Both the position numbers and the translations under genes were made by a program. From Octopus sinensis (lineage: Eukaryota), in the NCBI RefSeq assembly GCF_006345805.1, contig NC_042997.1, forward strand, positions 194,246,001 through 194,310,000: a stretch of DNA of 64,000 nt, in the 5' to 3' direction. Shown here in pieces: positions 1,504 to 48,997 of this stretch. Position 1 is the first letter of the stretch. Each line of letters opens with the position of its first letter. The notes below the pieces were generated by a model that searched no databases, was not told the DNA's origin, and saw only the letters and a program-made list of their open reading frames with translations.

Positions 1504-1590
<87 letters not shown>
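1504..1590. repeat. (GTA)n microsatellite
   Basis: Pure AGT/GTA tandem run; source of the poly-V and poly-L ORFs. Confidence 0.95.
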
Positions 1591-1860
1591 TTCTGACTTA
1601 GGCCCAAGACTGACAATTTTTATTGGTGGTGGGAGGGATTAAAAAATACCATGGGTCACCGCACGTTGACTGGTACTTAGACCGGTATTTCATTTTATTG
1701 GCCATGAAGGGAGGAAAACCAAAGTTGACCTTGGAAGTTTTGTGACGTTCTCAGTCCAAAAGTCACCGAGGTCAACTTTGCTGTTAATCCTTTTGCGGTC
1801 GAAACTAGTCAGGCACTGGGACCAATGGTATTTGCTAACAGTTGGCCTAAATCAGAAACC

Positions 1861-1903
<43 letters not shown>

Positions 1904-1940
1904 TTAATAATAATAATAAAAACAATGATAATGATAATAA

Positions 1941-2455
1941 ATGCCTGGTGCAGTATCTGGCAGTGGCTCTCATGGCTTCTGACCCTAACTGATTGGAAAT
2001 GTTATCATGTACATTGTTTTGTCTTGGTAAAAAAGATGGACTACAGCAAATATTCTGCTCAATATCACAGATTTGCTTGCCAGTTGTTTGACCTTAACCA
2101 GTTGAGCATGTCCCTTAGTGGATCGCTGATCACGAGCAGAAGTAGTGGGGGAGGATCATAGCCATGTATTGAGAGGAATTCTTTCGTGTTTGAATAATTC
2201 ACCCCTGGAAACATGGGTGTTTTGTTCAACATCCTTAAAACAAACTTTTGAGCGGGAAGGGATACTCGACCTGAAGAAAATTATAACTGGGCCCCACCTG
2301 CAAGGTCATGCACTGTTTATCTTGATATATGGTCACCATGTCGTGCGCATATGATTGTGATGTATGTGTTTGGTGTACCCTTATCAGATTGGTATACTGA
2401 ACTTCGTATATTTTAACCCAGTGTCACTTTGACGGCATGCACTGCTCTCTCATTC
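1941..2455 (+). mobile_element. ~515 bp non-coding dispersed repeat embedded in (AAT)n arrays
   Basis: Reverse-complement homologs at 53218-53591 and 53619-54130; (AAT)n on both sides. Confidence 0.8.
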
Positions 2456-2525
<70 letters not shown>

Positions 2526-2748
2526 CTGGTAATAGTAGTAGCAGTAGTAGTAGTAGTAATGATGAAGATAATAATAATAATAATAATAATAATAGTAGTA
2601 GTAGTAGTAGTAGTAGTAATAATGACTTTAGGATTGTCATTTGTGATGTTGATGTTATATATTCAGTATATTTTTTCTCAAACGTATAAATTTGTTCATA
2701 TAATTGTTTTATTATTAATATAGTTATATTATTGATTTTGTGTGTGTG

Positions 2749-2827
<79 letters not shown>

Positions 2828-3060
2828 CGATTTGATTGATGGATGGGTGTATATTAATCTATACACATAACATACCTCAATATTGTGTCTAATATTGTCT
2901 ATGTATGTACGTCTATGCCTTTTGATGGAAGTTCGATGTGACGTTGACATGTGTTAGTCTCAGTGTGTATGCGTATTACATAGGTACAAGTCTTGCGTTA
3001 GTATATGCATGTGCATACCTCTCTGTCTGCCTCTTTGTATGTCATTCTCTTACGGACGGG

Positions 3061-3504
3061 GGATCTTTTCGGTTTGAACGGCAGTTTTTTCTAGCGGTGT
3101 CATATGAAATTGTCACCCATAATTATGACCCTAGTATCGATCTATTGCATTTCAATCTATTTTAGGGTTAGGATTTGTTCGGGTTAGGTTTAGGGTTAGG
3201 GTTAGGGGTGGGGGAAGGGTTTCTTTTTTTCTTCAGAAATGTAAATAAACCGAATCTGTTTCTTATACGAGGGACATATTCATACGACACAGAATGTTGT
3301 TTACCTCAATGGACGTCATTGATTGGTTGAAATTGCAGAAATTGAAGAAAAAAACAACAAATATCTAACAAACTATAGAATTTTCTCAATAAACCCAAAA
3401 GAAAAAGATGTTTTATAAACACATTCTACCAGTATACGAAGTTTAAAAGAGTTTAGTTACGTGGAAATTATTTTAAAAAACTGCCGTTCAAACCGAAAAG
3501 ATCC
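3061..3504. mobile_element. MITE with ~30 bp TIRs and 8 bp TSD (Merlin-like), internal TTAGGG repeats
   Basis: TIR GGATCTTTTCGGTTTGAACGGCAGTTTTTT / AAAAAACTGCCGTTCAAACCGAAAAGATCC; TSD CGGACGGG at 3053-3060 and 3505-3512; second copy at 61472. Confidence 0.88.
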
Positions 3505-4302
3505 CGGACGGGAAATTATATTCGATATCAATTTTAGTATATTTAATATTTTACTTATGTTGCACTCCAAATAGCAAAAACTAAAACGACATAAATTGAA
3601 ATTAAATTCGATATGAGCCGAATATTCTACAAACACGAATTTAAATTTCATTTTTGTATTTCCTTATCGTGAATTCCAATTTGAAATAGAATTTCAGATA
3701 TTCTTTTTTTATTTTTTTAGAACCGATGCGCTTTTTTTTTTTCTTTTTTCCCCCTCGATCTTTGGTTTTTAGGTGCATATATCTGCGGGACAGAAAATGA
3801 AACAATAGGGAAATACAAAAATAGGCTTGGATATCCCGAGTAAGCGAAACGAATATGTAAATGTTTAAAAGCCACTTATATAATTTCATTAAATGGAAAT
3901 ATATTAATTTAAAATTAATTTAAACTTGTCTTCCGTTAAATCTTTTCAAATTTATTTATATTATTCATAGAAGTGCTTCCAGTTTATTTTTAATTTATCA
4001 TTCTTCTTGTTTATGACTTGGTTTATATTTTTGATAATACTTCCTATTAAGATCGTCTACGACTCAAACAATTTGTAACGTAGGCCTTTTGAAGTCATGT
4101 TCACAACATCGTCATTAATCTTAAAACAGAAGTTGCTATTTAAAAAAGTTAAATATTTTAATAGATATATAAATAAAATATGAACGGGTTATTAAACATT
4201 ATTTAATACTAACTTTTGCGCATTTACATAATCGTTCCACTTCTTCGGGTGACCCAAGTCTATTTTTGTATTTTCTTTGGTTTCATTCTGAGTCCCATAG
4301 GC

Positions 4303-4950
4303 AAGGCGGCGAGCTGGCAGAATCGTTAGCAGCCCAGGCGAAATGCTGAGCGGTATTTCGTCTACCGCTACGTTCTGAGTTCAAATTCCGCCGAAGTAAA
4401 CTTTGCCTTTCATCCTTTTGGGGTCGATTAAATAAGTACCAGTTACGCACAGGGGTCGATGTAATCGACTTAATCCGTGTGTCTGTCCTTGTTTGTCCCC
4501 TCTATGTTTAGCCCCTTGTGGGTAATAAAGAAATAGGTATTTCGTCTGTCGTTACGTTGTGAGTTCAAATTCCGCCGAGGTTGACTTTGCCTTTCATCCT
4601 TTCGGGGGTCGATAAATTAAGTACCAGTTCCGCACTGGGGTCGATGTAATCGACTTAAACCCTTTGTTTTGTCTTTGTTTTGTCTTTGGTTTGTCTTTGT
4701 TTTGTCTTTGTTTGTCCCCTCTATGTTTAGCCCCTTGTGGGTAATAAAGAAATAAGAATCGTTAGCGCATCAGATCAAATGCGTAGCAGCATTTCATCCA
4801 CCCTTTTACATACTAAGCTCTACTCCCGCTGAGGTCAACTTAACCGTTCATCTGTTCGGGGTCAATGAAATAAATATTAGTAAAGTACTGGGATCGATAT
4901 GATCGACTAACCCCATTCCCCAAATTTCAGGTATAGCCCCTATATTAGAA
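4303..4950 (+). mobile_element. SINE family A (tRNA-derived), tandem multimer
   Basis: Head GGCGGCGAGCTGGCAGAA, B-box-like GAGTTCAAATTCC, core GCCTTTCATCCTTTCGGGGTCGATAAATTAAGTACCAG; repeated units. Confidence 0.9.
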
Positions 4951-5675
4951 ACATTTCTTGCTGTAAATATATGTACTCAAAACCATTGATCGTTACTTTT
5001 TATTTCCAACTCAGTTTTAGCAATTTTCTGACCGAGAAGAAATTATAAAATATTTATATTTAAAATAAAATAGTCGAATCAATTTCTCCCTCCAAACCAC
5101 ATCTCGTAGTCTCTGCATAAGCATGTTCTATAAGTAAGTAGTAAAGTCATTGTAGCCGTATTTATTGTAGTCTGTAGTTCTTTCTGACTTTAATATTGTT
5201 ATCCACAAACAATATCTATCTGTTTTTCTACCACTGCGATAATCTCACTTCTCTCACTCTGTCGCCCCGGTTCTCTTTCTGTCATTTCATCATTTTCAAC
5301 TCGCTTTTTTGGTCACGTTGCCTTGGACGAGCGGGACCAACGTAGATTAGAAAATTACTTTTTGTTTTGCCGAGGAGGAGGCAACCTCTCTAGTGCAGGC
5401 GCCATAATAAAATGCACACTGTATTGTTTGTAAAGTGGCGGGTAATGAGGAGCGGCAAGTGTTTCTAGAAAGCATGCCAAAAAGGGAACGTGAGTGGAAG
5501 GCGTGATTCCTGAGCTGTCTATTAGGGTAGTGACTAAAAACAAAGGACTTGGACCGTGGTGAAGCATTCAAGTCGTATTTGCATAGAAAGTGGATCTAAA
5601 ACGATAACGATGAAGAGGAGGAGAAGGAGGACGACGATGAGAATGATGATGATGATGACGACAACGATAATGACA

Positions 5676-6280
<605 letters not shown>

Positions 6281-6955
6281 TATATGTGCAGATTTGTATG
6301 GTTTGCTTTATCTATGTATTCTCATGCACATAGTTGCGTATCTAGAAATGCTCTTGTATATTTAAATGACAAACTTCTGGAAAGTTTTACAGATTTTTAC
6401 AGTTCCAGTGATGGATTGGATCTGTAGTCTTCGAATTAGCTTTCTCCTTTCTGGTTTTGAGAAGCCTAATTTCCCAAGATTTAGGCAGTATGTATGTATG
6501 TATGTATGTATGTATGTATGTATGCGTACTGCATATATTCCATTTGTATTAAACTAAATTTGAATATATAGCCTACGTAATAATTACCTATTCAGGCAAG
6601 TAAATGACAGAATTAATAACGCATGAAGAAAATACTTCGCAGTATTTAATTATGTCCTCTTTTCGTTGTGAGTTCAAATTTCGCTGTGGCCAGCTTAATC
6701 ATTACTCTTTCAAGATCGTTATGAAATGAAATACTAGCCAGATATTATCTCTCGAAGCTCTCTACTACAACCTTTGATAGAAATTATCTATCTTCTATTG
6801 TTAAGGGTTGTTGAATGCAGTATCTGGAAAATACTGGATATAAATGCTTGCGTAGTATTTACTGAAGGCGCTTGGTGGAATGGAGAAGGTGTTGGGCCTC
6901 ATTATTGTGAGTTCGATTCCTGAGATGAGAATTTCACGATATTCTGGTCATCTTG

Positions 6956-7257
6956 TTTGATCCTCCTCGAGCCATGCCTGGCTCATTAGGGCTGGTTTCC
7001 TGGTTTCCTTGGCGTATAGATTCCCCACCTGGACGGGACGCCGGTCCGTCGCAGGTGAGCTGCAAGATGCAGGAGGAAAGAGTGAGAGAAAGTTGTGGCG
7101 AAAGAGTCAGCAGAAGTTCGCTATTACTTTCTGCCGGAGCCGCGTGGAGTTTAGGTGTTTTCGCTCATAAACACACACATCACCCGGTCTGAGATTCGAA
7201 CCCGCGATCCCTCGACCGCGAGTCCGCTGCTCTAACCACTAGGCCATGTGCCTCCAC
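6956..7257 (-). mobile_element. SINE family C (tRNA-derived), tail type 1
   Basis: Minus-strand head GTGGAGGCACATGGCCTAGTGGTTAGAGC...GGGTTCGAATCTC; imperfect 13 bp TSD TCTGGTCATCTTG / TCCGGTTATCTTG. Confidence 0.88.
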
Positions 7258-7607
7258 TCCGGTTATCTTGGCTAAAACATGTTTCGGAGCGGACGGCTGG
7301 AAAAGCTCTTTCTCCCTTCAGCTGCCACATCTTAGACGTAACAACTGGAGATTCCAACGAAAAAACTTAGACGTTCCTATGGGATAAAGATGGAATGTTC
7401 TGGAGGATGTCTGTGCCTACACGTGATTTAATACACATCAAAAACCAACCAGCAAAATCATAGTACAAGTAACCAGAGCATACTCGCTTGTGAGTGACGG
7501 CTAAGCATTTTCTTTTTATTTACTTAGGTCCAATTTCTTGGAATTTGTCATGACCTTTATTTAACAAAGCTATCTCATAAACCAGATTCATTTTCGGCTT
7601 TCTCTCT

Positions 7608-7639
<32 letters not shown>

Positions 7640-7678
7640 TCCTGCTTTCTTTCTTTCTTTCTTTTTTGCACATTCCAG

Positions 7679-7786
7679 TTGTCATCTACAGGCAAGATGC
7701 AACAATGAACGTTGGTATACGATTTGCGATGGATATATAAACTATTCCAATTATACGAATATGGCAAACAGATCCTTCTATGTGAA
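7679..7786 (+). CDS. candidate internal coding exon (CHLQARCNNERWYTICDGYINYSNYTNMANRSFYV) of an extracellular protein
   Basis: Long polypyrimidine tract + CCAG acceptor; 108 bp with one open frame, phase 2-2; 3 Cys and 3 N-glycosylation sequons; donor GTAATG is weak. Confidence 0.5.
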
Positions 7787-7798
7787 GTAATGTAAACT

Positions 7799-7871
<73 letters not shown>

Positions 7872-8218
7872 TGTGTGTATGTGTGTGTGTATTCTTCCGA
7901 TGTCAAACATTGCTGATCTCGGGACATGATATCCATCTTCATAAAACAATCACACTGATTTCGTTGTAATGCGTGTCTCTTTATTTTCTAATTCTTCGAA
8001 TTCTTGCCACAAAGAAGCGACTGCTTTCTAACGACTAAACAAAGCTCCTTCTTTGGAATTCAGATAACAACCGAAGTAACGTCTTGAATTTCATATAAAA
8101 GTCATAAAAGCCATTAAGGTTTCAGTTACAGAATGAATTTGCTGGGAGACAATCGCGCACATAAAATGTACAGAGAATTTATACTGCAGCCTTGTTGCTG
8201 TATAAATTCTTCATTATA

Positions 8219-8512
8219 GGCGTAGACATGGATGTGTGGTTAGAAAGGTCTCTTTGCAACCACCTGAGTTTAAGTTCAGTTCCACTGCCCGGCACCTTGG
8301 AGGCGAATCTTTTACAGTAGATTCAGTCCCACTGCGTGGCATCTTGGGCAAGTGTCTTCTACTAAAGCCTCGGGCCTTGTGAGTGGATTTGGTAGACGGA
8401 AACTGAAAGAATCCTGAGACCAATAGAATAAGTACATGGTTTACAAAGAGTAAGTCCTGTTCGACTAAAATGCAGTGCTCCAGCATGGCTGCAGTCAAAT
8501 GACTGAAATGAA
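8219..8512 (+). mobile_element. SINE family B, internally deleted
   Basis: GTTCAGTCCCACTGCGTGGCATCTTGGGCAAGTGTC and tail CAGCATGGCTGCAGTCAAATGACTGAAA. Confidence 0.85.
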
Positions 8513-8521
8513 TATACATGT

Positions 8522-8573
<52 letters not shown>

Positions 8574-8670
8574 ATACTTTACCTCTGAGGCAATATATGC
8601 ATATATTTATTTATACATGTGTGCGTGTGTGTGTGTGTGTGTGTCCTACTGTGCCACATTTTACTATATA

Positions 8671-8717
<47 letters not shown>

Positions 8718-8778
8718 ATCATGTTGGATCGTTAGCTCCTACACGCATTTTTTTCTCTCCTTGTTTCTTTTCTGTGTA

Positions 8779-8816
8779 TCTTTCTGTCGAAGAGCGTAGG
8801 CTCGAAACGTAAAAGA
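8779..8816 (+). ncRNA. minimal type I hammerhead-like motif, U6 core variant
   Basis: TCTTT-CTGTCGA-A-GAGC(GTAG)GCTC-GAAA-CG-TA-AAAGA; homolog at 17930-17967 (-). Confidence 0.55.
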
Positions 8817-8912
8817 CTTGTTTTATTTCTATTCCTGAGCGCCATACTAATACAATTGTTTGTTTGTACTCCACCTGCCTTCGTCTTTTGTTTATTTTCG
8901 TAAACCTTCCCG

Positions 8913-8951
<39 letters not shown>

Positions 8952-8984
8952 GTACATACATACATATATACATACATATATACA

Positions 8985-9034
<50 letters not shown>

Positions 9035-9048
9035 CATACATACATACA

Positions 9049-9084
<36 letters not shown>

Positions 9085-9149
9085 TATATATTATATATAT
9101 ATATATATATACATACATACATACATACATACATCCATACATACATACA

Positions 9150-9197
<48 letters not shown>

Positions 9198-9198
<1 letters not shown>

Positions 9199-9443
9199 GT
9201 TAATAAAATAGAACATATGCATATATATAAACATATATGTACGTACCTACCTCTACATGTACATATACACGCATATATGTGTACAGGACACCAAAAAGAC
9301 GTCGAACACATAGAGAGACGAAAAACATAGACACAAACCAAGGAACAAGACAAGCAAAAAAAGAGATACAGGACAATAAGCACAACGAAAAATCCCCTTC
9401 TTCAGTCGCTAAGGTTTCATCTACTAAACGTTTCGAAGGATAT
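9198..9443 (-). mobile_element. dispersed repeat (Penelope-like terminal-repeat fragment)
   Basis: Close homolog at ~41445-41705; contains CGAAACGT and CTGAAGA motifs on the minus strand. Confidence 0.6.
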
Positions 9444-9629
9444 ATATATATACGCATATGCTCTGTATGAGCATATGCGCTTACGTGTCCCTGTGTGAAA
9501 GTGTGACTGCGCGTATTGTCTATGAACAATATGAATATGTTTGTGTGAGTGTGCGCGAGTGTATGCTGGGTGTTTTTGTAAGACTACCTCATACACCCAC
9601 ATAAATAACTATACACCCGGTGATTTTTT

Positions 9630-10311
9630 ATGTACCTGCATGTGTTTGTTTGTGTGTGTCTGTGTGTGTCTGTGCGTGTGTGTCTGTGTGTGTGTTTGTG
9701 TCTGTCTGTGTGTCTGTCTGTGTGTATGTGTGTCTGTGTGTGTGCTTGTGTGTCTGTATGTGTGTTTATGTGTGTGGTGTTTGAGTGTGTGTGTGTGTAC
9801 GTGTGTGTGTGTGCGTCTGTGTGTGTATGTGTGTGTGCGTTTGTGTGTGTCTGTGGTGTTTGAGTGTGTATGTAGTGTTTGAGTGTGTGTGTATGTATGT
9901 ACGTGTGTATGTATGTGCGTGTGTGTGTGTATTTGTGTATGTGTCTATGTGGTGTTTGAGTGTGTCTGTGTACTTGTGTGTGTGTCTATGTGTCCGTGTC
10001 TGTGTCTATATGTGTGTGTCCGTGTCCGTGTGTGTGTGTGGTGTTTGAGTGTGTGTGTCTGTGTGTGTGTCCGTGTCTGTGTCTATGTGTCCGTGTCTGT
10101 GTCTATATGTGTGTGTCCGTGTCCGTGTGTGTGTTTGTGTCTGTGTATGTGTCTGTTGTGTGTGTGTCCGTGTCTGTGTCTATGTGTCCGTGTCTGTGTC
10201 TATATGTGTGTGTCCGTGTCCGTGTGTGTTTGTGTGTGTGTGTGTCTGTGTGTGTGTCCGTGTCTGTGTCTATGTGTCCGTGTCTGTGTCTATATGTGTG
10301 TGTCCGTGTCC

Positions 10312-10343
<32 letters not shown>

Positions 10344-10599
10344 CTGTGTGTGTGTCCGTGTCTGTGTCTATGTGTCCGTGTCTGTGTCTATGTGTGTGTC
10401 CGTGTCCGTGTGTGTGTGGGTGTGTGTGTGTGTGTGTCTGTGTGTGTGTCCGTGTCTGTGTCTATGTGTCCGTGTCTGTGTCATATAGTGTGTGTCCGTG
10501 TCCGTGTGTGTGTGTGTTTGTGGTGTGTGTGTGTGTGTATGTGGTGTCCGTGTCTGTGTCTATGTGTCCGTTGTCTGTGTCTATATGTGTGTGTCCGTG

Positions 10600-10635
<36 letters not shown>

Positions 10636-10890
10636 TGTGTGTGTGTCCGTGTCTGTGTCTATGTGTCCGTGTCTGTGTCTATATGTGTGTGTCCGTGTCC
10701 GTGTGTGTGTGTGTTTGTGTCTGTGTATGTGTCTGTGTGTGTGTGTCCGTGTCTGTGTCTATGTGTCCGTGTCTGTGTCTATATGTGTGTGTCCGTGTCT
10801 GTGTGTGTGTCCGTGTCTGTGTCTATGTGTCCGTGTCTGTGTCTATATGTGTGTGTCCGTGTCCGTGTGTGTGTGTGTGTGTGTGTCTGT
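9630..10890. repeat. complex (TG)n-derived minisatellite with higher-order units
   Basis: Recurring block GTCCGTGTCTGTGTCTATGTGTCCGTGTCTGTGTCTATATGTGTGTGTCCGTGTCC. Confidence 0.9.
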
Positions 10891-11046
10891 GTCACTCACC
10901 CATGTCCTCTATAATTACCCGTTCGGCTGATATGCATGTGGATGCCTTTGTGTGCAGCAAGTAGCAAGTGTGTCTATGACTGCTTCTTGGTGCGTTGTCA
11001 CTGCATGTGTGTGCATTTCAATCCTCGCTCAAGACAATACCTACAT

Positions 11047-11241
11047 ATGTGTGTATGTGTGTATGTGTATGTATGTATGTATGTATGTATGTATGCATGT
11101 ATGTATGTATGTATGTATGTATGTATGTATGCATGTATGTATGTATATGCATGTATGTATGTATGTATGTATGTATGTATGTATGTATGTATGTATGTAT
11201 GTATGTATGCATGTATGTATGTATGTATGTATGTATGTATG

Positions 11242-11273
<32 letters not shown>

Positions 11274-11301
11274 CATGTATGTATGTATGTATGTATGTAT
11301 G

Positions 11302-11333
<32 letters not shown>

Positions 11334-11940
11334 AATCTATGCATGTATGTATGTATGTATGTATGTATGTATGTATGCATGTATGTATGTATGTATGTAT
11401 GTATGTATGAATCTATGCATGTATGTATGTATGTATGTATGTATGTATGTATGTATGTATGCATGTATGTATGTATGTATGCATGTATGTATGTATGTAT
11501 GTATGAATCTATGCATGTATGTATGTATGTATGTATGTATGTATGTATGTATGTATGTATGTATGTATGTATGTATGTATATGCATGTATGTATGCATGT
11601 ATGTATGCATGTATGTATGCATGTATGTATGTATGTATGTATGTATGTATGTATGTATGTATGTATGTATGTATGTATGTATGTATGTATATGCATGTAT
11701 GTATGTATGCATGTATGTATTTATATATGTATATATGTGTATGTATGTATATATATATGTATGTATGTATATATGTATGTATGTATGTGTGTATGTATGT
11801 ATGTATGTATGTATGTATGTATATGCATGTATGTATGCATGTATGTATGTATGTATGTATGTATGCATGTATGTATGTATGTATATGCATGTATGTATGC
11901 ATGTATGTATTTATATATGTATGTATGTGTATGTATGTTT
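11047..11940. repeat. long interrupted (TATG)n microsatellite
   Basis: TATG run with recurring TGCA and GAATCTATGC variants. Confidence 0.95.
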
Positions 11941-12399
11941 ACATGACACACACATACACACACATACACACACATACACTCACATATATATGTTATATAT
12001 ATATAGTTATATATAGTTATATATATATATAATTATATATAACAGTTATATATAGTTATATATATATATATAGTTATATATGTACAAGTGTATGTGAATA
12101 TATATTTATATGCTATATGTTGTCTATGTACGTATGAGTGCGTTTTAACGTGTTACCGCTCACAGCTCTTTGTATCTATATGCGGTGCGCCCTCCTCTCA
12201 TCTGTCGGACACAAATGAGCCACGCTGGTTCTCCCCACTTAAAAACCTATTATTATTACCTGTTGGTAACAGAAACAGCAACATGCCACCTTAATGCTTC
12301 TGTGTTTTTCTAATGACGTCAACAAACCAACAAATTAGAGAGAAGCACCACATCACTGATTAATTAGATTAAATTTCCTCACTTCATCAAATTTCTTAG

Positions 12400-12441
12400 C
12401 ACTAACTTGACTGTTATTGTCCGCGTACATGGCGTCACTAG
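12400..12441 (+). CDS. candidate 42 bp micro-exon (TNLTVIVRVHGVT)
   Basis: TTTCTTAG acceptor, consensus AG|GTAAGT donor, open in phase 2-2 and compatible with 7679-7786; NLT sequon. Confidence 0.4.
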
Positions 12442-12892
12442 GTAAGTTCTTTCAGTCATTATTACGTTTGGCGAGCTGGCAGAATCGTTAGCACGCTGTA
12501 CAAAATAAATACTTAGCGGCATTACGTCCGTCTTTTCGTTCTGAATTCAAATTCCGCCGAAATCGACTTTATTTTTATTCTTTTGGGGGTCGAAGAAATC
12601 GACTATCCTTCTTCCCCACCCCAATCTCAGGCCTTGTGCTTATAGCAGAAAGGATTATTACAGTATTTGATGCCTACTGGGGTACACCATTTTACGCGAA
12701 TATAAAGATTGTTTTTACCATTAATCTGCTGTGTCGAGGAAGTAATGCTTCGTTGAAGAGGTTTAATAAGAGCGAAATACGTCTTGAGTTGTCGTTCGTA
12801 ACTGCGTAAGTCTGATAAACACTAGCAGTACCTGTGTGTTTTACTATTTTTTTAACTAGGTGTGCACATTTTAGGGAAACTATACAACATAT

Positions 12893-13250
12893 AGGCGCAG
12901 ATGTGGATATATGGTTAAGAAACGCGCCTTGCAACCACGTGTTTTTGGGTTCAGTCCCACTGTGCGACACTTGGGTTAGTATCTTATACTGTAGCCCCGA
13001 GCCGACAAATGCTTTGTGAGTTTGGGAGATGGAAATTGCATGGGTGCCCGTTGTATATATTATGTATATATCTTTGAGCCTCAGTTGGTTTGTTTGTGTC
13101 CCGGTAACTTAGCGATTTGGCAAAAGAGAAGGATAGAGTAAGTACCAGACTTTAAAAAAGTGAAGTGCTAGGGTCAGTTTATACGACTAAAACTGTTCTA
13201 GGCAGTGCTCCAGTATGACCATAGTCCTATGACTAAAACGAATAAAGGAG
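12893..13250 (+). mobile_element. SINE family B, diverged
   Basis: Head and tail similarity to other B copies. Confidence 0.8.
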
Positions 13251-13436
13251 CATGGACGATAAAGAAGAGCAGTATTTCATAATCCTTTCCACTTCAGACA
13301 CAAAGCCTGACTATATCGGCCCTAGTGTTCAACTGGTACTTATTTAATCGACCCTGAAAAAATAAAACGCAAAGTTAACCTCGGCTGAATTTGAACTCAG
13401 AGCGTAAAGCCGGCAGAAATGCCGCGAAGTAATTTT

Positions 13437-14220
13437 AAGGCGGCGAGCTGGCAGAAACGTTAACACACCGGGCGAAATGCTTAGCGGTATATCGTCTGTC
13501 TTTACGTTCTGGATTCAAATTCCGCCGAGGTCGACTTTGCCTTTCAGCCTTTCGGGGTCGATAAAATTAAGTACCAGTTACACACTGGGGTCGATGTAAT
13601 CGACTTAATCGGTTTATCTATCCTTGTTTGTCCCCTCTATATTTAGCCCCTTGTGAGTAGTAAAGGAATAGGTATTTCGTCTGCCGTTACGTTCTGAGTT
13701 CAAATTCCGCCGAGGTCGACTTTGCCTTTCATCCTTTCGGGGTCGATAAATAAAATACCAGTTACACACTGGGGTCGATGTAATCGACTTAATCCCTTTG
13801 CCTGTCCTTGTTTGTCCTCTCTGTGTTTAGCCCCTTGTGGGTAGTAAAGAAATAGGTATTTCGTCTGCCGCTATGTTCTGAGTTCAAATTCCGCCGAGGT
13901 CGACTTTGCCTTTCATTTTTTCGGGGTCGATAAATAAAGTACCAGTTACGCACTGGGGTCGATGTAATCGACTTAATCCTTTGTCTGTCCTTGTTGTCCT
14001 CTCTGTGTTTAGCCCCTTGTGGGCAGTAAAGAAATAGGTATTTCGTCTGCCGCTACGTTGTGTGTTCAAATTCCGCCGAGGTTGACTTTGCCTTTCATCC
14101 TTTCCGGGTCGATAAATAAAGTACCAGTTACGCACTGGGGTCGATATAATCGACTTAATCCCTTATCCTGTCCTTGTTTGTCCCCTCTATGTTTAGCCCC
14201 TTGTGGGCAATAAAGAAATA
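13437..14220 (+). mobile_element. SINE family A tetramer nested in an antisense family A copy
   Basis: Units restart at 13671, 13855 and 14037; 22 bp TSD AGAAATGCCGC(G/T)AAGTAATTTT at 13415-13436 and 14221-14242. Confidence 0.92.
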
Positions 14221-14450
14221 AGAAATGCCGCTAAGTAATTTTGTCTTGTACGGTAGCAAATCTGCCAGCTTGCCACCTTTCTGGTGTTAAAAATAACATC
14301 AGTCATGACGTCAATGTTTTCTCTTCGCCACGTAAGTATTATTTTAGACTGCAGCCATGCTGGGACACCGCCTTAACGGTTTTAGACCAGTGTTTCTCAA
14401 GGCAGGGCGCATAAGCTACCTGTTGTAGCATAGCATTAATTTGGTAGAGT

Positions 14451-14786
14451 GTGAAGGCGCATGGCTCAGTGGTTAGGGCGTCGAACTTACGATCGTGAGG
14501 TTGTGAGTTCGAATGCCGGACTGGGCTGCGTGTTGTGTTCTTGCGCAAGACACTTTATTTCACGTTGTTCCAGTTCACTCAGCTGTAGCAATGAGTTGCG
14601 ACGTCACAGGTGCCAAGCTGTATCGGCCTTTGCCTTTCCCTTGGATAACACTGCAGGCGTGGAGAGGGGAGGCCGGTATGCATGGGCGACTGCTGGCCTT
14701 CCATAAACAACCTTACCCTGACTTGTGCCTCGGAAGGTAACTTTCTAGGTGCAATCCCATGGTCATTCGTGGCCGAAAGGGGTCTC
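14451..14786 (+). mobile_element. SINE family D (tRNA-derived)
   Basis: A-box TGGCTCAGTGG, B-box GTTCGAAT; homolog at 56003-56318. Confidence 0.88.
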
Positions 14787-15239
14787 CTCCGAGTGACTTC
14801 AGAATGAGGCGTAAGCAATATGTAAGTAAAATATAAGTAAACCTTGCCATAAAATTTTCATAAGACTTATTTTCAGTGAATAATTGTTATATATTTTGTT
14901 CATGATAGGGGTTCACGATAGGGCGGAGGGAGGATTGAAAAGGGGAGTAGGGGCGAAGCGCTGGGAAATATTATTCTGGTCGATCAAATCGATCTCAGCA
15001 CTTATTTTTAGTTTGGTACTTATTGTTGAACCGCTAGGTAACGGAGATTCAAACGAACCAACAACACTTATCAAAACAGTTGTAAAGAAACTTTCATAAT
15101 ACAAACGTTATCTGAAACAGGACGCAATACTTTAACTAAAGTGGTTATACATACATACATACATACATACATACATACATACATACATACAAGAAACTGC
15201 GTGCTACCGTGAAATTCTGTTTTTGCTGGGGAAAAACTC

Positions 15240-15985
15240 AGAACGTAGCGTCTGCCGCTACGTTCTGAGTTCAAATTCCGCCGAGGTCGACTTTGCCTTT
15301 CATCCTTTCGGGGTCGATTAAATAAGTGCCAGTTACGCACTTAATCCATTTGTCTGTCCTTGTTTGTCCCCTCTGTGTGTAGCCCCTTGTGGGCAGTAAA
15401 GAAATAAGAAACGTTAGCATGCCGAGTGAAATGCTTAGTGGTATTTCGTCTGCCTTTACGTTCTGAGTTCAAATTCCGCCGAGGTCGACTTTGCCTTTCA
15501 TCTTTCGGGTCGATAAATTAAGTACCAGTTATGTACTGGCGTTGATCTAATCGACTGGTCCCTTCCCCCAAAATTTCGGGCCTTGTACATAGAGTAGAAA
15601 AGGCTATTACGACAACCTGGCAAACACGTTAGCAGACCGGACACAATGCTTAGCGGCATTTCGTTTGTGTTTACATTCTAATTTCAAGTTCCGCCGAGGT
15701 GACTTTACCTTTAACCCCACTTTCGGGATCGATGAAAGAACCATCAGTTGAGCGATGGGGAATCGATGTAATCGACTTAGCTCCTACCCCGAAATTACTG
15801 GCCTTGTGCCAAAATTTAGAATCATTATTACTGTCTTATTATAAGATGGTGATCTGTCAGAATCGGTAGCACTCCAGACAAAATGCTAAGTAGCATTTCT
15901 TTTGACTTTACGGTCTGAGTTCAAATGCCACCAAGGCCGACTCTACCCTTGGATCCTATCAGGGGTCGATAAAATAAATACAAGT
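15240..15985 (+). mobile_element. cluster of SINE family A copies
   Basis: Several successive A cores of varying divergence. Confidence 0.85.
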
Positions 15986-16114
15986 CAATTATTTCATCAT
16001 TGGAGAACAACGTCTTCTGTCAGACGAATATGGGTTCGTATCACACTCAGTTTATTAGCGTCAGTGGATTTTGGGACACCCAGTGACTACTCTTGTTAGA
16101 TTCATTCGTCCGAC

Positions 16115-16170
16115 GTAGCTTTGGCTGAGGAGGCACAACGGTGTCGAAACATCGGGTGTCCAAAGTCTAC
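16115..16170 (+). ncRNA. type I hammerhead ribozyme, canonical core
   Basis: GTAGCTTTGG-CTGAGGA-GGCAC(AACG)GTGTC-GAAA-CAT(CGG)GTG-TC-CAAAGTCTAC; GUC cleavage triplet ending at 16160. Confidence 0.75.
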
Positions 16171-16770
16171 TTGCGCTAATTAATCGAGTGTGTTATGAAA
16201 AGATTCGTCTGAAAGATGTTCTCTAATTACAAAATACAACAGCGATTAACATATTCGAGTTCGAATCTTTCGGAACATATGAATATCTAAGTCATCTTTC
16301 TAATTTTCGCTATTCACGTGCACATGGCGATTCCTAATCGAAGGAGATATATTGATTACTTCTATGCGAATTAAGAATAGTTTAAAAGCTTCCAAGTCCT
16401 CACCTGAAGACTGACATAACAATTCAGACTTTCTTCTTTCGCTCACTATCTTCATTGGCACCTTACCAAATACTGGCATCTAACATTTGTTTTGTCTTAT
16501 TTTTCTTCGTAGGTAAACAGACATGAAATATATTAGTACAACACAGAAAGTTGCTTGTTATTTTTACTTGTATATTATCTCTCGGCAATATTTGTGTATC
16601 ACGCATGAGAAGAATTAAAATTAACCAGAGATGTTTTTAATAAATCATTTCTGATCTTTCTTTTCGGTTTCTAAATTGCATTAGTTAGTTTCGTCAGTTA
16701 ACATTTAGTCTTACTAATCAAGCAATTAATTTAGATTAACTGTAGTACACCGTTCTTGTTTCCTCGAAGT

Positions 16771-17180
16771 TCTCTCTTTTCTCTTTTTACTTGTTTCAGT
16801 CATTTTGACTGCGGCCATGCTGGTGCACCGCCTTTAGTCAAGCAACTCGACCCCGGGACTTATTCTTTGTAAGCCTAGTACTTATTCTATCGGTCTCTTT
16901 TTGCCGAACCGCTAAGTGACGGGACATAAACACACCAGCATCGGTTGTCAAGCAATGCTAGGGGGACAAACACAGACACACAAACATACACACACACACA
17001 TATATACACATATATACGACGGGCTTCTTTCAGTTTCCGTCTACCAAATCCACTCACAAGGCTTTGGTCGGCCCGAGGCTATAGTGGGAGACACTTGCCC
17101 AAAATGCCACGCAGTAGGACTGAACCTGGAACCATGTGGTTGGTAAGCAAGCTACTTACCACACGGCCACTCCTGCGCCT
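16771..17180 (-). mobile_element. SINE family B, full length
   Basis: Head GGCGCAGGAGTGGCCGTGTGGTAAG, internal (TA)n(TG)n, A-rich AAAAGAG tail. Confidence 0.93.
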
Positions 17181-17816
17181 ATTGTTATCGTTTTTAAAAC
17201 TCGAGTCGACTAGAGTTTTCTCAAGACTGATTAATAATGGTCGACAGAATCATTGCATGTTTAACTACGTCTGCTAAAGGAAATATGTTAAATCCAGCGA
17301 AATAAATTCTTCCTCTCTTATCAAAGAGAAAATACTGAACTGCATGTTTTTAGTTAAGGTGTACGAAGAAGGCATCGACCGAATATCAAGAAGGAAGCTG
17401 ATAGTGAATTAGTATTATAATTATTTCAGGAAATTTTAATAAGAATAAATACAAATAAACCTACAATTAAAAAAATAGTATTAGTCATTGGTTAACATAA
17501 TTTTTTAATCTTTCAGCAAATACAAGAGATAACACCGGTCGGGTTTCTATCTTATTCTCACCTACTCAGAGAAGCATATAAGCCGATATGCGAGTAGGTT
17601 TCGTATCAGAGTTGAAGTCAGTTCAATTCACTGATATTGCTAATTCCCTTCAAAAGTACAGGAATGTCATACGATTACAGTTGCATTTGCTGCAAATCCG
17701 TGTCTTTGTATCTTTGTTTTAAAAAAAGAACCAATGCTATCAGGATATCAATGAAACTGTATGCGTGTATATATACACACACATATATATAGATATATAT
17801 ATAGAGAGAGGGGGGA

Positions 17817-17853
<37 letters not shown>

Positions 17854-17929
17854 AGAAAAACAAAGGACGAAGACAGGTGTATGAACAACAAGCAGGTGTA
17901 TCAGTTTGACGCTCGGGAAAATGAAAAAG

Positions 17930-17967
17930 TCTTTTACGTTTCGAGCATACGCTCTTCAACAGAAAGG
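17930..17967 (-). ncRNA. minimal hammerhead-like motif, U6 core variant
   Basis: Minus strand CTTT-CTGTTGA-A-GAGC(GTAT)GCTC-GAAA-CG-TA-AAAG; downstream ~80 bp homologous to 8817-8905. Confidence 0.55.
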
Positions 17968-17968
17968 A

Positions 17969-17999
<31 letters not shown>

Positions 18000-20201
18000 T
18001 GTATGTATGTATGTATGTATGTATGTATATATGTATGTATGTACGTATGTATGTACAGTGTAGTGATAAGATGTAACTGAATATGACACTATTCAATGAC
18101 GCACCATTTTAAAAAGTTTCTGGAAAACTCAATTCATAAAATATTCTCATTTTCGTTTAACTTTTCTCGATTCACCTGCCTATATTTCTCATTATTTACT
18201 CTCCCCTTTTCTCTCTATATATATATTCCAAGAATATTTTACAAACACACACACACACACATTTATCTATGATATTCGGCCAAAGAAACTCTCTACCTCA
18301 TATTCACCGTAAATATAGAGGATACAGCTCCACTGGCAGCCTGTGATTTGTGCCTGCTCCCAATTATTCTACGCTTTTCCTGCGATGAAACTACGAAAGT
18401 TGAGGCTAATTTATTGTCTCCGATGCGCACGATTTCCCAACCTCTGCAACAAAGTGTCTCCCGTCTATTTGTGGTTTTGAAAATGTTCCTGTCCTAATTG
18501 TAAAAGGCAACCAACTTCTCTCTTACGCCTGATAAAGTGGCCGGTTTATAAGATTGCAATGGACAATAATAGAAGACACTTGCCGAAGGTGCCATGCAGT
18601 GGGACTGAACCCGAAACCATGTGGTCGGGAAGCAAATGTGTGTGTGTGTGTGTGTGTGTTAGCATACCCAGGAGAATTGCGCAGTTCATTTTGTGGTGCA
18701 GTGTAAGCGATAAACACCTCTCCACTCGGTAATAAATATCCTGTCATTTTCTTCAAAATCTTTGGAAAATTTCCTGAGAAATCCTCTCTATCCTTTTCGA
18801 CTATGTTTTCTCTTCTAACCTTTTTTCTCATTCTGGCTTATACAAAATATTCTTGCCGATCATCAACGTTCTCATTTTGCCTTTTTCCTTGATTAGCTCC
18901 AGCTTCTTATTACGACACCTTCTAGCTCCATGTCTTATATTACCTTCGTTCCTTTTCTCTTGAGTTAATGTCTCTTGTCGTTCTTGATTCTCCTCTCTTT
19001 ATTCCTAATCCTCATTTCTTCTTTTTGCCATTTTCCCAATATTTCCTTGTAGCTTCTCTGTCGTTTCGTTTCAATTTTTCCTGTCATGCTTTATGATCAT
19101 TTTCAGCCGCAACACACCAAACTCCGTTTCGCTAATAAAATAATTCAAGAAGCGCTTAATATTATATATATATTGGTAACACCCGTACCCAGGATGTACC
19201 ATAACGCATCTTTTACAAAGAAAGTTTGGAATACTGGTAATAATATACAAAGAGTTGGAAAAGCTCGTACCTAGGATTTACAGATACACACGTTTTACGA
19301 ATAAATTTGGCAATCTGTTATATTTTATTGCTGAAGATAGATTCCTGTGGTGTAAAAATCTCCCACGCTGTGGAAGGTTTTATTTAAGTGTATGTATCGA
19401 AGAGAGAGAGAGAGATAAGAGACACAGATAAAGATTCAAACGAACACTACTGACACTCACACACACACACACACGCACACACACACAAACTGACACACAT
19501 ACAAACATCAATGGGCGCGTACACATGCACACACGCACACACAGACGACTTTTAACGGTGCGTATATGTGTGAGAGAGCTGACGGTATGTGTGTATGTGC
19601 GCGTGATATTAGCGTTAATATGTGTGCTAGTGTGTGTATGTGCATATGTACAAGTACCCGTAGCATTAATTTAATTTTTTCACTATTTATCAAATTTAGG
19701 AATACGGATATATATAGCTACGAAAACATTGTATCCAACATATACCGTAGGACATTTTACAAAAGAAGTTAGGAACACAGATACTAATACATAGATAGAT
19801 GCTCAATTTACACGACGTCTTGATCTAAGACGCACGAGTTAAATTATCTGGTAAATAGTGAAAGAAAATTAGACAAATGATATTTGCACGTGCACACGTC
19901 CCCCACTCTCCAACTCTCACACAACATACACACACAGCTAACTGGAGTCTGTGTATGTGTGTTTATACCAATAGCGTCCGTGTGTGTGACTGTGTATATT
20001 TTTGCGCGTGCCAGTGGCGTCCGTTTGAATCACTTAATCTATCTCTCCCCCCTTTCTCCCCCTCTCTCTTCTCTCTCTGTCACTCTCTCTCCCCCCTCTC
20101 TCTCTCCCTCACACACGCACAAAGTTTTACCACCACCTTTCTATAACGTAACAGATTTTTTACACCACAGGAATCAATCGTTCTGACTTTATTATAATAT
20201 A

Positions 20202-20251
<50 letters not shown>

Positions 20252-20736
20252 TATAATATGTTATATTACAATATATTGTATTCGAGCATACAAGTAATCG
20301 TACCTTCTTTTTAGACCTGAATAGCAGAAACGAAAGAATCCGTAAAAGACTGCCATGTTTAAAGCTCAATTCATCTTCCCATATGTCATTACTATATATA
20401 ATTTTATTCCCTCCACGAAAATTGTATAATATATATATATACAGGAGATAATATTATACAATACTGCAACCACTGTAAACAAATCTCACATTACTCTCTC
20501 CTCGTGGAGAGATCATACTCGATAAGGATTTTTAGCAAAAGGGTAAAGGATTTACTTCCAGACTTTTGGAATCTGAATGTTCCATGCAATTTTAGTTGAA
20601 GGCTTATGAATTTGTTGTTTATTTTTCATTTAATAACAGTGACTCAACAGCAATGATATCGTCAAGGGAGGTAATTAGTTTTGATATCTTGGAAGCTTTC
20701 ATATTTTTCTTATTTACCTCTCTTGGCATCATCCAG

Positions 20737-20833
20737 ATGTTGTTTTATGGTTGCAGCAGCTGCTAAAATGCTGTTATTTGGTTGCCAAAACTTTGGTTCT
20801 ATAAATTTCTGCGATAGACGTCCCAAGCAGAAG
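20737..20833 (+). CDS. weak candidate exon (CCFMVAAAAKMLLFGCQNFGSINFCDRRPKQK)
   Basis: Pyrimidine tract + CCAG, AAG|GTATTG donor, one open frame entering in phase 2; no recognisable homology. Confidence 0.2.
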
Positions 20834-21016
20834 GTATTGTCAAGCAAACACTCATTCATTTGTTTGTTTTATTGTGTATATGTTCGGTGATCTCAACCAA
20901 GTAATTGCTTTATATGATATTTATAATGCTATCGTTAATAATAATAATCATGCGTGTGTACTTTACTGTTGTTGAACTCGGTTGTTTACTTGCAACTCTG
21001 TATGGCGGTACTGAGT

Positions 21017-21245
21017 GGCGGCGAGCTGGCAGAAACGTTAGCACGCCGGACGAAATGCGTAGCCGTATTTCGTCTGCCGTTACGTTCTGAGTTCAAATTC
21101 TGCCGAGGTCGACTTTGCCTTTCATCCTTTCGGGATCGATAAATTAAGTACCAGTTGCGCACTGGGGTCGATGTAATCGACTTAATCCGTGTCTGTCCTT
21201 GTTTGTCCCCTCTGTGTTTAGCCCCTTGTGGGTAGTAAAGAAATA
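21017..21245 (+). mobile_element. SINE family A monomer with TSD
   Basis: GGTACTGAGT duplicated at 21007-21016 and 21246-21255. Confidence 0.93.
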
Positions 21246-21284
21246 GGTACTGAGTGAGAAAAAACACGCTACGAAACAAGTTTT

Positions 21285-21568
21285 GAATACTAACTACAAA
21301 TACAATAGGGTCTCGCATATGTTAATATACTGAGTTGGAAAAAAAAGATCCAATTAACTGAGATTATCTTTGAAATTAACAGACTAAAACTCACTGCTAC
21401 AAATTTAAGAATATAAGTAATAGTGATCGTTCTAATAAAATGATTTAAGTAACATCTAGAAAACAAAGAAAATGCAATATGGGGATGGGTCTTGTCTTTA
21501 AATACAGATGAAGGTAATGGTTATGTTTCGGTCTTATTAAATCTCCTTAGCGAAGGATATTCTACTCA
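21285..21568. repeat. unclassified old dispersed repeat
   Basis: Colinear similarity with ~41105-41356. Confidence 0.55.
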
Positions 21569-21944
21569 ATTCCTTTTACAAACAGATAGATGAATAAATA
21601 GATTAACAGACAGGCAGACAGGCAGGCAGATAGACAGATTGTAGGGTACAGTGGTACACATACACGCGCACACACAGATACACACGCGCACACTCATACA
21701 CACATGCACGTAGCGGGATTTGCCACAACTTCTATCTACGAAATTCATTGACAAGACATTGGTCGGCTCCGAACTATAGCAGAAAAAACGCTTGTCCAGC
21801 GCGCGTAAATCTTCTAATTTGATCGGTCAATGGTGTAATGCTACAGCGCTCTGTTTTGGTAGGGTGATTAGGCGATGTTCTTTTCTTCATCTTGAATATA
21901 TGCCGTATACATACATACATGCATACATATGTGTGTGCGTGTTT

Positions 21945-22015
<71 letters not shown>

Positions 22016-22034
22016 TATAGATTGATAGACAGAC

Positions 22035-22070
<36 letters not shown>

Positions 22071-22158
22071 CGTGAAGTATATTTACCACCTAAATATGGC
22101 GGACTCATAGGGACGATGCTACTGTTGTTTATAGCCCCAGGAAAATTATTAATTTGAT

Positions 22159-22215
22159 ATCATGCTGATGAAGAAAGTGAATTTTATAATTCTAATCCCG
22201 AAACGCGTACATGAT
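22159..22215 (+). ncRNA. minimal type I hammerhead ribozyme
   Basis: ATCATG-CTGATGA-[weak stem II GAATT/AATTC]-C-GAAA-CGCG-TA-CATGAT. Confidence 0.6.
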
Positions 22216-22381
22216 TAATCGTAAGACTGGTTAGTTTCGTTATTTTTTCTTCTTTTTGACTATGTGAGTTACGAGTATTGCTGTCTGTGGAGTTATATTG
22301 TAGTTAAAAGAATTAGCGGTTTTGACTGCTATTTCTAAATTTTCGGTATGCGGTAAAGCAACTTTTTGGTAAACCCTTAAT

Positions 22382-22469
<88 letters not shown>

Positions 22470-22579
22470 GTACACGCACGCTCACGCGCACACACACACA
22501 CATATGTATGTGTATTCACAAGAAAACGTGAATGCTGTGGTGTGTGATCCTTAGATGGGGTAGTCACAACACACATCAC

Positions 22580-22910
22580 AGGTGATGAAAGGAGGAGAAA
22601 CGGGTGACTTGGTTGTGCTTGAATTGAGACGATACAAGAGCATTCAACACCGGGGAACCGAGGTCATTATAGTAACGGTAAAAAGAGGCAGAGAGAGGAT
22701 GCTGCATGCATATGACCCAAAGGCTAGGTCGTGTCTGTGAGTGATTTTTATGCCAAAAATTTAAGTGAAACTTCTCAGGATACGATGTCTGTGTGTACTG
22801 CAACAGTATTGTCCCATATGTGAGGACAATATTCCCTCGTAGGGATCACTTGAGCTTTGTGGAATGTCAATTATTGTTGGAAGCTGAAGTATTTTCTGGC
22901 ATTGGGGAGA
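22580..22910 (-). pseudogene. CR1/L2-group LINE ORF2 fragment, degenerate
   Basis: Minus-strand translation LTFHKAQVIPTREYCPHIWD and ...FYRYYN resemble the C-terminal region of CR1-type reverse transcriptases. Confidence 0.6.
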
Positions 22911-24019
22911 AAAGTTAACCTTTGGGATGCGGTCCTAGATATATTATATTATATAATATATAGGGGAGCTTGTGTATATTTGTGTTTAAGATGTGTTTAT
23001 TTGATCTATCAAATCATGTTACAGCGCTAGGTATAGTAGGTATTTAAATAATGCATTCGTGAATTGGATGTGGAGCTGATGAAAGAGCAATAACTCTTAA
23101 AATATGTATATACACCAATATATTTTCTGTTTTCGATCGCCTTGTTTACATAGACGTATTAGTGTACGAAACGCCGTAACTTGCAGTGATGGCTCTGAAT
23201 TCTATAGAAAAACTATTGAGATAAACTCAAGAGTGATATTTCTGTGTGTTATTCTACGTATATGTGGTTGTGCTCGAGGAATATAAGAGATGTTTATGTC
23301 TATATATCTATGTACCGCCATGTTTGTATGTTTGTATATGACTGTATGTACACGTAAGACAAAAACTTGGTTTTTCTTTTTATCCTTTTTTTCTCCTTTT
23401 TCTTTTCAAATCTTGACTGTCTTTTTTTTAAATCCTCAATATATCTCTCTTTCTATCTGCCTCTATCTCTCGTCTCTCTTTTCTATTTCTCTATTGACAG
23501 ACATCACAGATAAGAACAGAGAAATGGAGTCATCTCACTACAGAACCTAAAACAGATTTATATCCATTTAACCACACATACACACACACACACAAACACA
23601 CCAAAAATTTGTTTAAAAAAGAATAAAATGTAAAATAACGCTGAACGAAAACCAAAAAAAAAACAACAAAAAAACAAAAAAACAGTTCACAATGAAAGAA
23701 AGACAGAAGGAAGAAAAGAAGGAAGAGACAGAAATCAGAGACGATATCTTCCAAACCAAATCTACTGCTGTATTGATGCATGGTCGTTGTTCTTGTTGAT
23801 GTTACTGATGGTGATGCTGATTATGTTGCCAATGCCGCCATTTTTCTTTTTCTTTTCTAATTGTCGTTTATTGGACAAGCGAATGATTTTTTAAAAATTT
23901 TGTTGCTGGTTTTCATTTTATACTTAAAATAACAATTTCTCCTTTACAGTATACCCTGTCATGTACACACACACACATACACACACAAGTGTGTGTATAT
24001 AATATCAATTATGTGTATT

Positions 24020-33218: not shown

Positions 33219-34032
<814 letters not shown>

Positions 34033-48446: not shown

Positions 48447-48503
48447 GAAATCAGACATTCTTTTCTATAAGTATATTAATTCTATATTCAACAATCTTTT
48501 TAG

Positions 48504-48997
48504 TGGTCGAACAACTGGCGTATGACGAAGTAATGACGACGGCAGCTACAGATTTTCAACAACTACGGAAACAACAACAGCAGCAACAGCAGCAGCAGCA
48601 ACAACAACAACAACAATATGAATCTTCAGCTACACCTGGTGTTTTCCAAAGCAGATGTCCTTATTCCTTTCCACCCGTCGAACCAGCTTTTCCTACTTTA
48701 CCATCGAATATCCAACGAGAGTTTAGAGGGAACTTAACGAAATTCCTGTTCCGGTGCGTCGACCTATGGAATGCGCATGAAAAAGAATACTTCTTCCGAG
48801 ACGGTATAAATAACTTGCACCAAGATGACCCTAAACTCTTTGACAACCGAAGCTGGTCGGAAGAATCAATGTCGCTATATTTACCTGCCAGCAAGCAGAA
48901 GCTTGCGGCTACGTCTTCAGGAGCAAAAACCAAAATCAGAAGACACTTAAGCGCGTATTTCTTAGCATTTGTAATAATAGTCTTATTCGTTGTGTAG
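48504..48997 (+). CDS. probable terminal coding exon of a GPI-anchored or membrane-tethered protein with poly-Q
   Basis: TCTTTTTAG acceptor (phase 1); ~163 codons of mostly complex sequence; mixed CAA/CAG poly-Q; C-terminus TSSG-spacer-AYFLAFVIIVLFVV*. Confidence 0.7.

Follow-up and report, generated by a model that had tools for sequence, protein, structure and literature searches.

A hammerhead motif in an intron of an octopus collagen XXVI-like gene: probably an ordinary transposon fossil and not a gene switch

Introduction

Does a hammerhead motif that lies in an intron of an octopus gene, on the gene's own sense strand, serve that gene as a switch, or is it the remnant of a mobile element? 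The question is raised by a few hundred nucleotides of the window, by which we mean the whole 64,000-nucleotide stretch of Octopus sinensis DNA analysed here, and a preliminary description of that stretch had leaned towards the first answer. Hammerheads do occur in introns of protein-coding genes: those of RECK and C10orf118 are described in the available text of PMC3088659 as conserved mammal-wide and active in vitro. Mobile elements offer precedents of another kind. The non-LTR retrozymes of metazoans, according to the available portions of PMC7229834 and bioRxiv 10.64898/2026.07.22.740005, are non-coding units of 150-450 bp with GC below 45% that carry a type I hammerhead, stand head-to-tail and have a proposed origin from Penelope-like elements (PLEs); the same portions report them from a mollusc, the mussel. 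The hammerheads of PLEs themselves, in the accessible part of PMC4209133, are mostly scattered single motifs of truncated elements, with some close pairs on opposite strands. Our analysis suggests the second answer: the locus in the window is probably an ordinary transposon fossil.

Results

The host gene

The host gene was mapped from its exons, as follows.

1037..1154, + strand: coding exon of the collagen XXVI-like (EMI + collagen) host gene, on the 5' side of the element, with its donor GT at 1155 in phase 1 (tblastn, 39/39 residues identical to P0001; splice sites)
1155..23500, + strand: host intron containing the element in sense, reaching 48503 where splicing goes to the far last exon (exon mapping, splice sites)
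23501..23550, + strand: coding part of the short-isoform last exon, of the P0001/P0121 type (tblastn, 15/15 residues identical; AG at 23499-23500; stop codon)
48504..48997, + strand: coding part of the alternative far last exon, homologous to the P0002 C-terminus (BLASTP, 50% identity, E 7e-52; phase-1 AG at 48502-48503)

A collagen-repeat exon 33 kb upstream matches octopus collagen alpha-1(XXVI)-like proteins, P0001 at 94% and P0002 at 74%. Since the host exons map to the + strand, the element stands in sense within the intron at 1155-23500, and the preliminary description was right to place it in an intron on the sense strand of its host. Two alternative last exons terminate the gene. A poly-Q stretch and a hydrophobic C-terminal tail are encoded by the far one, and a search with this exon, at 48.6 kb, as the sole query returned nothing among 106 candidates.

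The motif and its cleavage junction

The motif itself occupies fewer than fifty nucleotides.

16119..16165, + strand: type I hammerhead motif (direct reading, alignment to 55 other copies, gap count)

Direct reading gives the core CUGAGGA at 16125-16131 and GAAA at 16146-16149, a stem II of 5 bp (16132-16136/16141-16145) and a stem III of 4 bp (16149-16152/16156-16159; A-U, C-G, A-U and U.G) with loop CGG, so that the core and the short stem III claimed earlier are both there. Every position of the conserved core is occupied as in a hammerhead, namely C3 U4 G5 A6 N7 G8 A9, G12 A13 A14 and A15.1-U16.1 (16125-16131, 16146-16149, 16159), and the stem pairs next to the core are formed in 4/4 positions in stem II and 4/4 in stem III, with one G.U in each. 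The window motif is derived from a hammerhead.

On the 3' side of stem III come U16159 and then C16160, after which the putative cut would fall, and stem I sets 16119-16124 against 16160/16161-16165, with one C fewer than the family has. Between U16159 and the AAAG that follows there are two Cs in the window copy and three in the family, and among 56 copies the gap count finds a single-base gap at the junction Cs in this one only. With two Cs, stem I cannot keep six contiguous pairs and still leave H17 unpaired; the loss thus leaves either no unpaired H17 or a distorted stem I, and the window copy, in which an unpaired H17 and an unbroken stem I do not occur together, falls short of a canonical monomer. 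A strict descriptor that asks for the core, U-H and 4 or more contiguous stem I pairs finds matches in 7 of the first 30 family loci but does not return the window copy. Rfam at its gathering score yields 0 matches within the whole 64-kb window, and the motif by itself folds no better than shuffles (z -1.21; 32/200 as good). The earlier label of a canonical, full three-stem hammerhead therefore goes too far, the copy being one C short at its junction and missed by the strict descriptor, and cleavage as a monomer, which had also been proposed, is unsupported in view of that lone lost C.

A missing H17 would be expected to abolish hammerhead cleavage. If C16160 is kept as H17, either G16123 must bulge or G16124 must be extruded before C3. 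Constrained folding gives -14.89 kcal/mol for the register without H17, -12.59 for the extruded G and -7.99 for the bulge (ensemble -21.80), which puts the register without H17 ahead of the two H17 registers by 2.3 and 6.9 kcal/mol in predicted stability. The better H17 fold has a predicted probability of 3e-7, as compared with 5e-8 to 6e-3 for five intact natural copies, L008 having been left out of this comparison for a gap. Because the value lies inside the range of the intact copies, folding alone is no proof of inactivity, and because those copies score low too, the absolute probabilities are uninformative. A natural hammerhead variant with 2 nt inserted between stem I and C3 was impaired in cleavage (available text of PMC3088659). 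Judged by its sequence, the window hammerhead is likely no longer able to cleave well.

One could suppose instead that an element of the same origin still cleaves slowly in the bulged or G-extruded register, or that a third C survives in other alleles or species, with the arm described below suppressing cleavage by accident and the host unaffected. All 11 conserved core bases and H17 are indeed available if stem I has a bulge or an extruded G, stems II and III are fully paired, and the arm lowers the predicted probability of the active fold by about 4.4 orders when 15990-16175 is folded and by about 10 for the whole element. Moreover, the loss of one C from CCC is a typical long-read error or the product of slippage. 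Against this, folding prefers the register without H17, and runs X3 and X4, which may be the source sample itself, share 1.00 of 89 sampled words of 15900-16800. Since a false one-base gap should cost about 3 of these words, the two-C form is likely present in the short-read data; it is probably real, and a long-read error is an unlikely source of it. On balance we think residual cleavage of this kind unlikely.

A family of old repeats

The motif belongs to a repeat family. Its own genome holds at least 41 matches to the query 16086-16228 (160 candidates, 40 scored) and at least 44 to a full-unit query (760 candidates, 40 scored); 66 loci, less 10 duplicates, left 56 unique loci that were examined. 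The unit is about 335 nt long, has a mean GC of 37% and is non-coding, the longest stop-free frame being 30-83 aa across the 56 copies. In tandem copies the unit's 3' end joins its own 5' start.

Median identity to the family majority is 82.5% over the unique loci. The window copy ranks third of 56 in closeness to that majority (87%), partly because it was used as the first query. The core is intact in 18/56 copies, core plus stems in 6/56, and a 28-nt core stretch has only 6 genome matches within 1 mismatch. The low median, the few intact cores and the scarcity of near-matches indicate that the family is old. Core columns are nevertheless better conserved than base-matched non-CpG columns, at 0.94 vs 0.85 (0/10,000 resamples, a procedure that assumes independent copies and columns), and this is seen also in 23 loci found with another query. 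Such conservation fits a ribozyme that would have been selected during the element's mobile phase. Pairing in the stems does not exceed that of shuffles, with 634/755 cells paired vs a shuffle mean of 632.7.

In the family, stem III is 4 bp long and is closed by a loop of 3 nt. In animals, the available parts of PMC4209133, PMC8557442 and PMC11167929 give a stem III of usually 1-2 bp or none, and large ones in fungal and protist PLEs; a stem III of 4 bp is thus unusual for animals, one mildly unusual trait. No description of the family was found in the literature searched; Repbase, Dfam and the supplements of PMC8557442, PMC4209133 and PMC7229834 may list it.

The inverted arm and the mode of insertion

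The motif is part of a larger arrangement of repeats.

16089..16332, + strand: main copy of the ~335-nt repeat, truncated at its 5' end and covering profile columns 84 to ~337 with the optional ~30-nt 3' tail (nhmmer, E 6e-62)
15990..16085, - strand: inverted 5'-truncated second copy (the arm), profile columns 145-238 (nhmmer, E 3e-21)
15859..15989, + strand: high-copy SINE-like repeat adjoining the arm's outer end, where the arm stops (family D2/D5, very high contig depth)

The main copy is aligned by nhmmer over 16089-16317, with an envelope to 16328, and its end at ~16332 was set by eye; its 3' tail scores 31 vs a null 99th percentile of 21. The two copies stand head-to-head across a junction of 3 nt (16086-16088), and the outer repeat at 15859-15989 we take to be a SINE.

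The arm at 15990-16085 is a reverse-complement copy of the main copy's 3' half. The upstream antisense copy, which had been placed at ~16000-16085, is therefore real, and it pairs in the predicted fold, which is one long hairpin of -101.7 kcal/mol (z -8.58; 0/200 shuffles as good) in whose MFE form the arm pairs with the cut site and with the 3' strands of stems III and I. Its supposed purpose as a silencer is another matter. The same layout occurs at 13/56 family loci, arm and partner are 77% identical over 87 columns (~76% is expected under independent decay), and 13/53 other copies match the arm as well as or better than its partner does. As the layout is family-wide and the similarity does not exceed what decay predicts, the arm likely arose at insertion, and its sequence gives no sign that it was kept for pairing.

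How would such an arm come about? An inverted copy within 160 nt of the 5' side was found at 13 of the 56 loci, and within the same distance of the 3' side at none; 14 loci are head-to-tail partial tandems and 29 are solo. The ~30-nt tail is present in 14/48 and absent from 34/48 of the copies that reach column 298, the 8 ending earlier being left out. The family thus shows 5' truncation, partial tandems, an inverted 5' copy and an optional tail. In the available text of PMC8557442, PLE insertions come as partial tandems, can have a 5'-truncated copy in inverted orientation at their 5' end and in some cases carry a tail of 30-40 bp, the tail corresponding to two internal RT start sites (PMC11167929, in the part available); the PLE protein is described, again in part of the source, as extending both target strands. 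In these four traits and in its type I hammerhead, the family resembles PLEs with hammerheads in their pLTRs. A MITE with terminal inverted repeats was considered and rejected: the arms are two 5'-truncated copies of one unit, their breakpoints vary, and 43/56 loci have no near inversion.

A search by tblastn of 30 Penelope-type ORFs against the 56 family loci, of ~3 kb each, gave no match, and no autonomous parent was found at 30 of 147 GIY-YIG loci, where 1.5 kb on each side held no profile match with E < 1e-3. The RT + GIY-YIG ORF between pLTRs that marks an autonomous PLE was found neither at the 56 loci nor at those 30/147. The parent not having been found, the Penelope link rests on architecture. 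There are in the genome many Penelope-type RT + GIY-YIG ORFs (L037, L038, L047 and others), and several of them are open frames of 760-880 aa, which means that an autonomous Penelope-type family, possibly a recent one, exists there.

These data also bear on the idea that the unit is not a self-contained non-autonomous element and is instead the terminal repeat (pLTR) of an extinct autonomous PLE. It would agree with the scattered single motifs and opposite-strand pairs of PLE hammerheads (PMC4209133, available part). However, in the copies that extend to the unit's 5' start, what lies upstream is its own 3' end, an inverted copy or unrelated DNA, and never an ORF, and we regard a pLTR origin as very improbable.

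We rejected the notion that the cut of the ribozyme (column 156) is where upstream partial copies begin, as the nearest starts fall at columns 141-146 and one arm runs to 115. Among 26 upstream partial copies (L009 was excluded as an alignment artefact), 4 (L001, L011, L081 and L088) start at columns 141-146, a small sample picked out post hoc. At these columns, 10-15 nt short of the cut site, GAAA meets stem III, and such starts may reflect a reverse transcriptase stalling at the ribozyme fold.

The acceptor at 16512 and the relatives

Downstream of the element lies a candidate splice site.

16490..16518, + strand: putative acceptor-like site with 17/20 pyrimidines, TAG at 16510-16512, then GTAAAC (sequence reading)

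Its TAG ends at 16512, 352 nt after C16160. The preliminary description had called this a strong 3' splice site, and the polypyrimidine-TAG signal is present as stated, with 17/20 pyrimidines vs 14-16/20 in three real acceptors; the + strand of the 22.3-kb intron, however, has 5 YAG sites equally rich in pyrimidines, of which this is one (the - strand has 1), and the site is absent from the retrieved host proteins. Splicing to it in the intron's phase would add four residues and then a stop, and the peptide from 16513 is the C-terminus of none of the 5 host proteins (P0001, P0002, P0121-P0123). The stretch after the site (16490-16770 region) is single-copy. The AG/GTAAAC at 16511-16518 resembles either a recursive splice site or the 5' edge of a last exon that would be very short; a GTR after one of 5 strong acceptors is within chance (~0.14, a rough estimate). 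Contig sets X1 and X2, which we guess to be RNA, have no cover over 16023-16210 and ~21-nt cover near 16485-16505, which, from the bin depths, would be a chance low-complexity match and not an exon. Among the runs listed as sharing the sampled words of 15900-16800 none is RNA; neither this nor the missing cover weighs for or against transcription.

Contigs of two other organisms, X5 and X6, span the element (one contig each), so the insertion, being common to both, predates their split. Within the element X5 differs by 15 substitutions and 20 gap letters in 383 nt and X6 by 21 and 8 in ~375 nt; the downstream flank differs by 1 in 204 nt in X5 and by 9 plus 1 gap in 425 nt in X6. Conservation above the flanking intron, which would be expected of a domesticated hammerhead, is not seen, since in these single contigs of X5 and X6 the element differs more than its downstream flank. 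The persistence of the insertion, common to two other organisms, counts against the reading of the element as a fossil.

Could the host have co-opted the element after all? The ribozyme would then cut the nascent pre-mRNA under the restraint of the arm and so steer splicing at 16512 or the choice of last exon. Several features of the locus suit such a switch: the element lies in a sense intron with two alternative last exons downstream, the cut site is covered by the arm, and the 16512 site is single-copy, richer in pyrimidines than the three real acceptors and set in a region that has changed little in the two relatives. Yet the lesion falls at the cut site itself, the arm's layout is generic and its complementarity not in excess, the element has diverged more than its flank in X5 and X6 (one contig each), and there would seem to be no factor at hand to open a hairpin of ~80 bp. 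We find the switch highly doubtful. Nor do we give more than slight credence to a co-opted insertion accident, in which a cut at 16160 would occur when the arm is melted or A-to-I edited and would steer use of the AG/GT at 16512 or of the exons at 23501 and 48504. If true, it would amount to an editing- or kinetics-gated ribozyme switch in a cephalopod collagen XXVI-like gene.

Discussion

We consider it highly probable that the element is an old fossil copy of a non-coding, hammerhead-bearing repeat, non-autonomous and Penelope-type or retrozyme-like, which lies in a sense intron, is likely a poor cleaver and is passively transcribed. What is established directly is the family with its unit length and head-to-tail junction, the loss of the C, the presence of an inverted copy on the 5' side and the host intron. 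As to mechanism, a Penelope-type RT/GIY-YIG protein would have acted in trans on the non-autonomous unit, and two cDNAs primed near the unit's fixed 3' end, both ending early, would have been joined head-to-head, forming the arm at insertion. Both copies would then have drifted independently, the arm would have been trimmed by the SINE or by a deletion, and one C at the H17/1.1 junction would have been lost later. Within the pre-mRNA of the host, the stretch would form a long imperfect hairpin that leaves with the intron, and the ribozyme's role would have belonged to the life cycle of the element and not to the host gene.

By analogy with known systems, the element most likely works like a non-LTR retrozyme moved by Penelope machinery. 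Like those retrozymes, the octopus unit is short (~335 nt), has a mean GC of 37%, no frame longer than 83 aa and a type I hammerhead, and it stands head-to-tail at 14/56 loci, as partial tandems, one of them with two full units. Unlike them, its copies are mostly solo or partial-tandem with at most two full units in a row (L074, the sole locus where the main copy stands next to a full unit; stem II of that main copy is broken), the family is old and decayed, has frequent 5' inversions and is known here from DNA copies, and the window copy is a truncated monomer and not a tandem. In contrast to PLEs, the family lacks an RT/GIY-YIG ORF and has a stem III of 4 bp with a 3-nt loop. The window copy shares with the RECK and C10orf118 hammerheads of PMC3088659, as far as its available text describes them, a place within an intron of a protein-coding gene; it differs from them in being one of at least dozens of scored copies (among hundreds of candidates), in the lesion at its cut site and in diverging above its flank. 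By these tests it does not qualify as an active retrozyme, an autonomous PLE or a domesticated intronic hammerhead.

As a decayed repeat copy, the single locus is of little weight. The family is of interest as an octopus example that joins retrozyme-like units to Penelope-type insertion, with its partial tandems, 5' inversions and tail, and its 4-bp stem III, unusual in animals, could be assayed in monomeric form in intact natural copies. Since Penelope-type insertion yields a ribozyme with an antisense arm automatically, caution is due when genome scans turn up such pairs.

Two further observations concern the rest of the window. Pfam searches with 6 window ORFs found only a transposase fragment above cut-off, which is of the DDE type and lies in pieces at 27291-28049 on the - strand (Transposase_1, E 1.7e-05). 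A second, unrelated and younger hammerhead repeat of ~390 nt occupies 33470-33863 on the - strand, antisense to the host gene, with its core from 33778. No ORF match was found at 11 other loci of this repeat, among which there are tandem and inverted copies. It has at least 40 matches at 94-97% identity (1053 candidates). Its CUGAUGA core is intact, its stem I has 6 bp and its stem II is long, while stem III, short and palindromic, is of the kind usual in animals.
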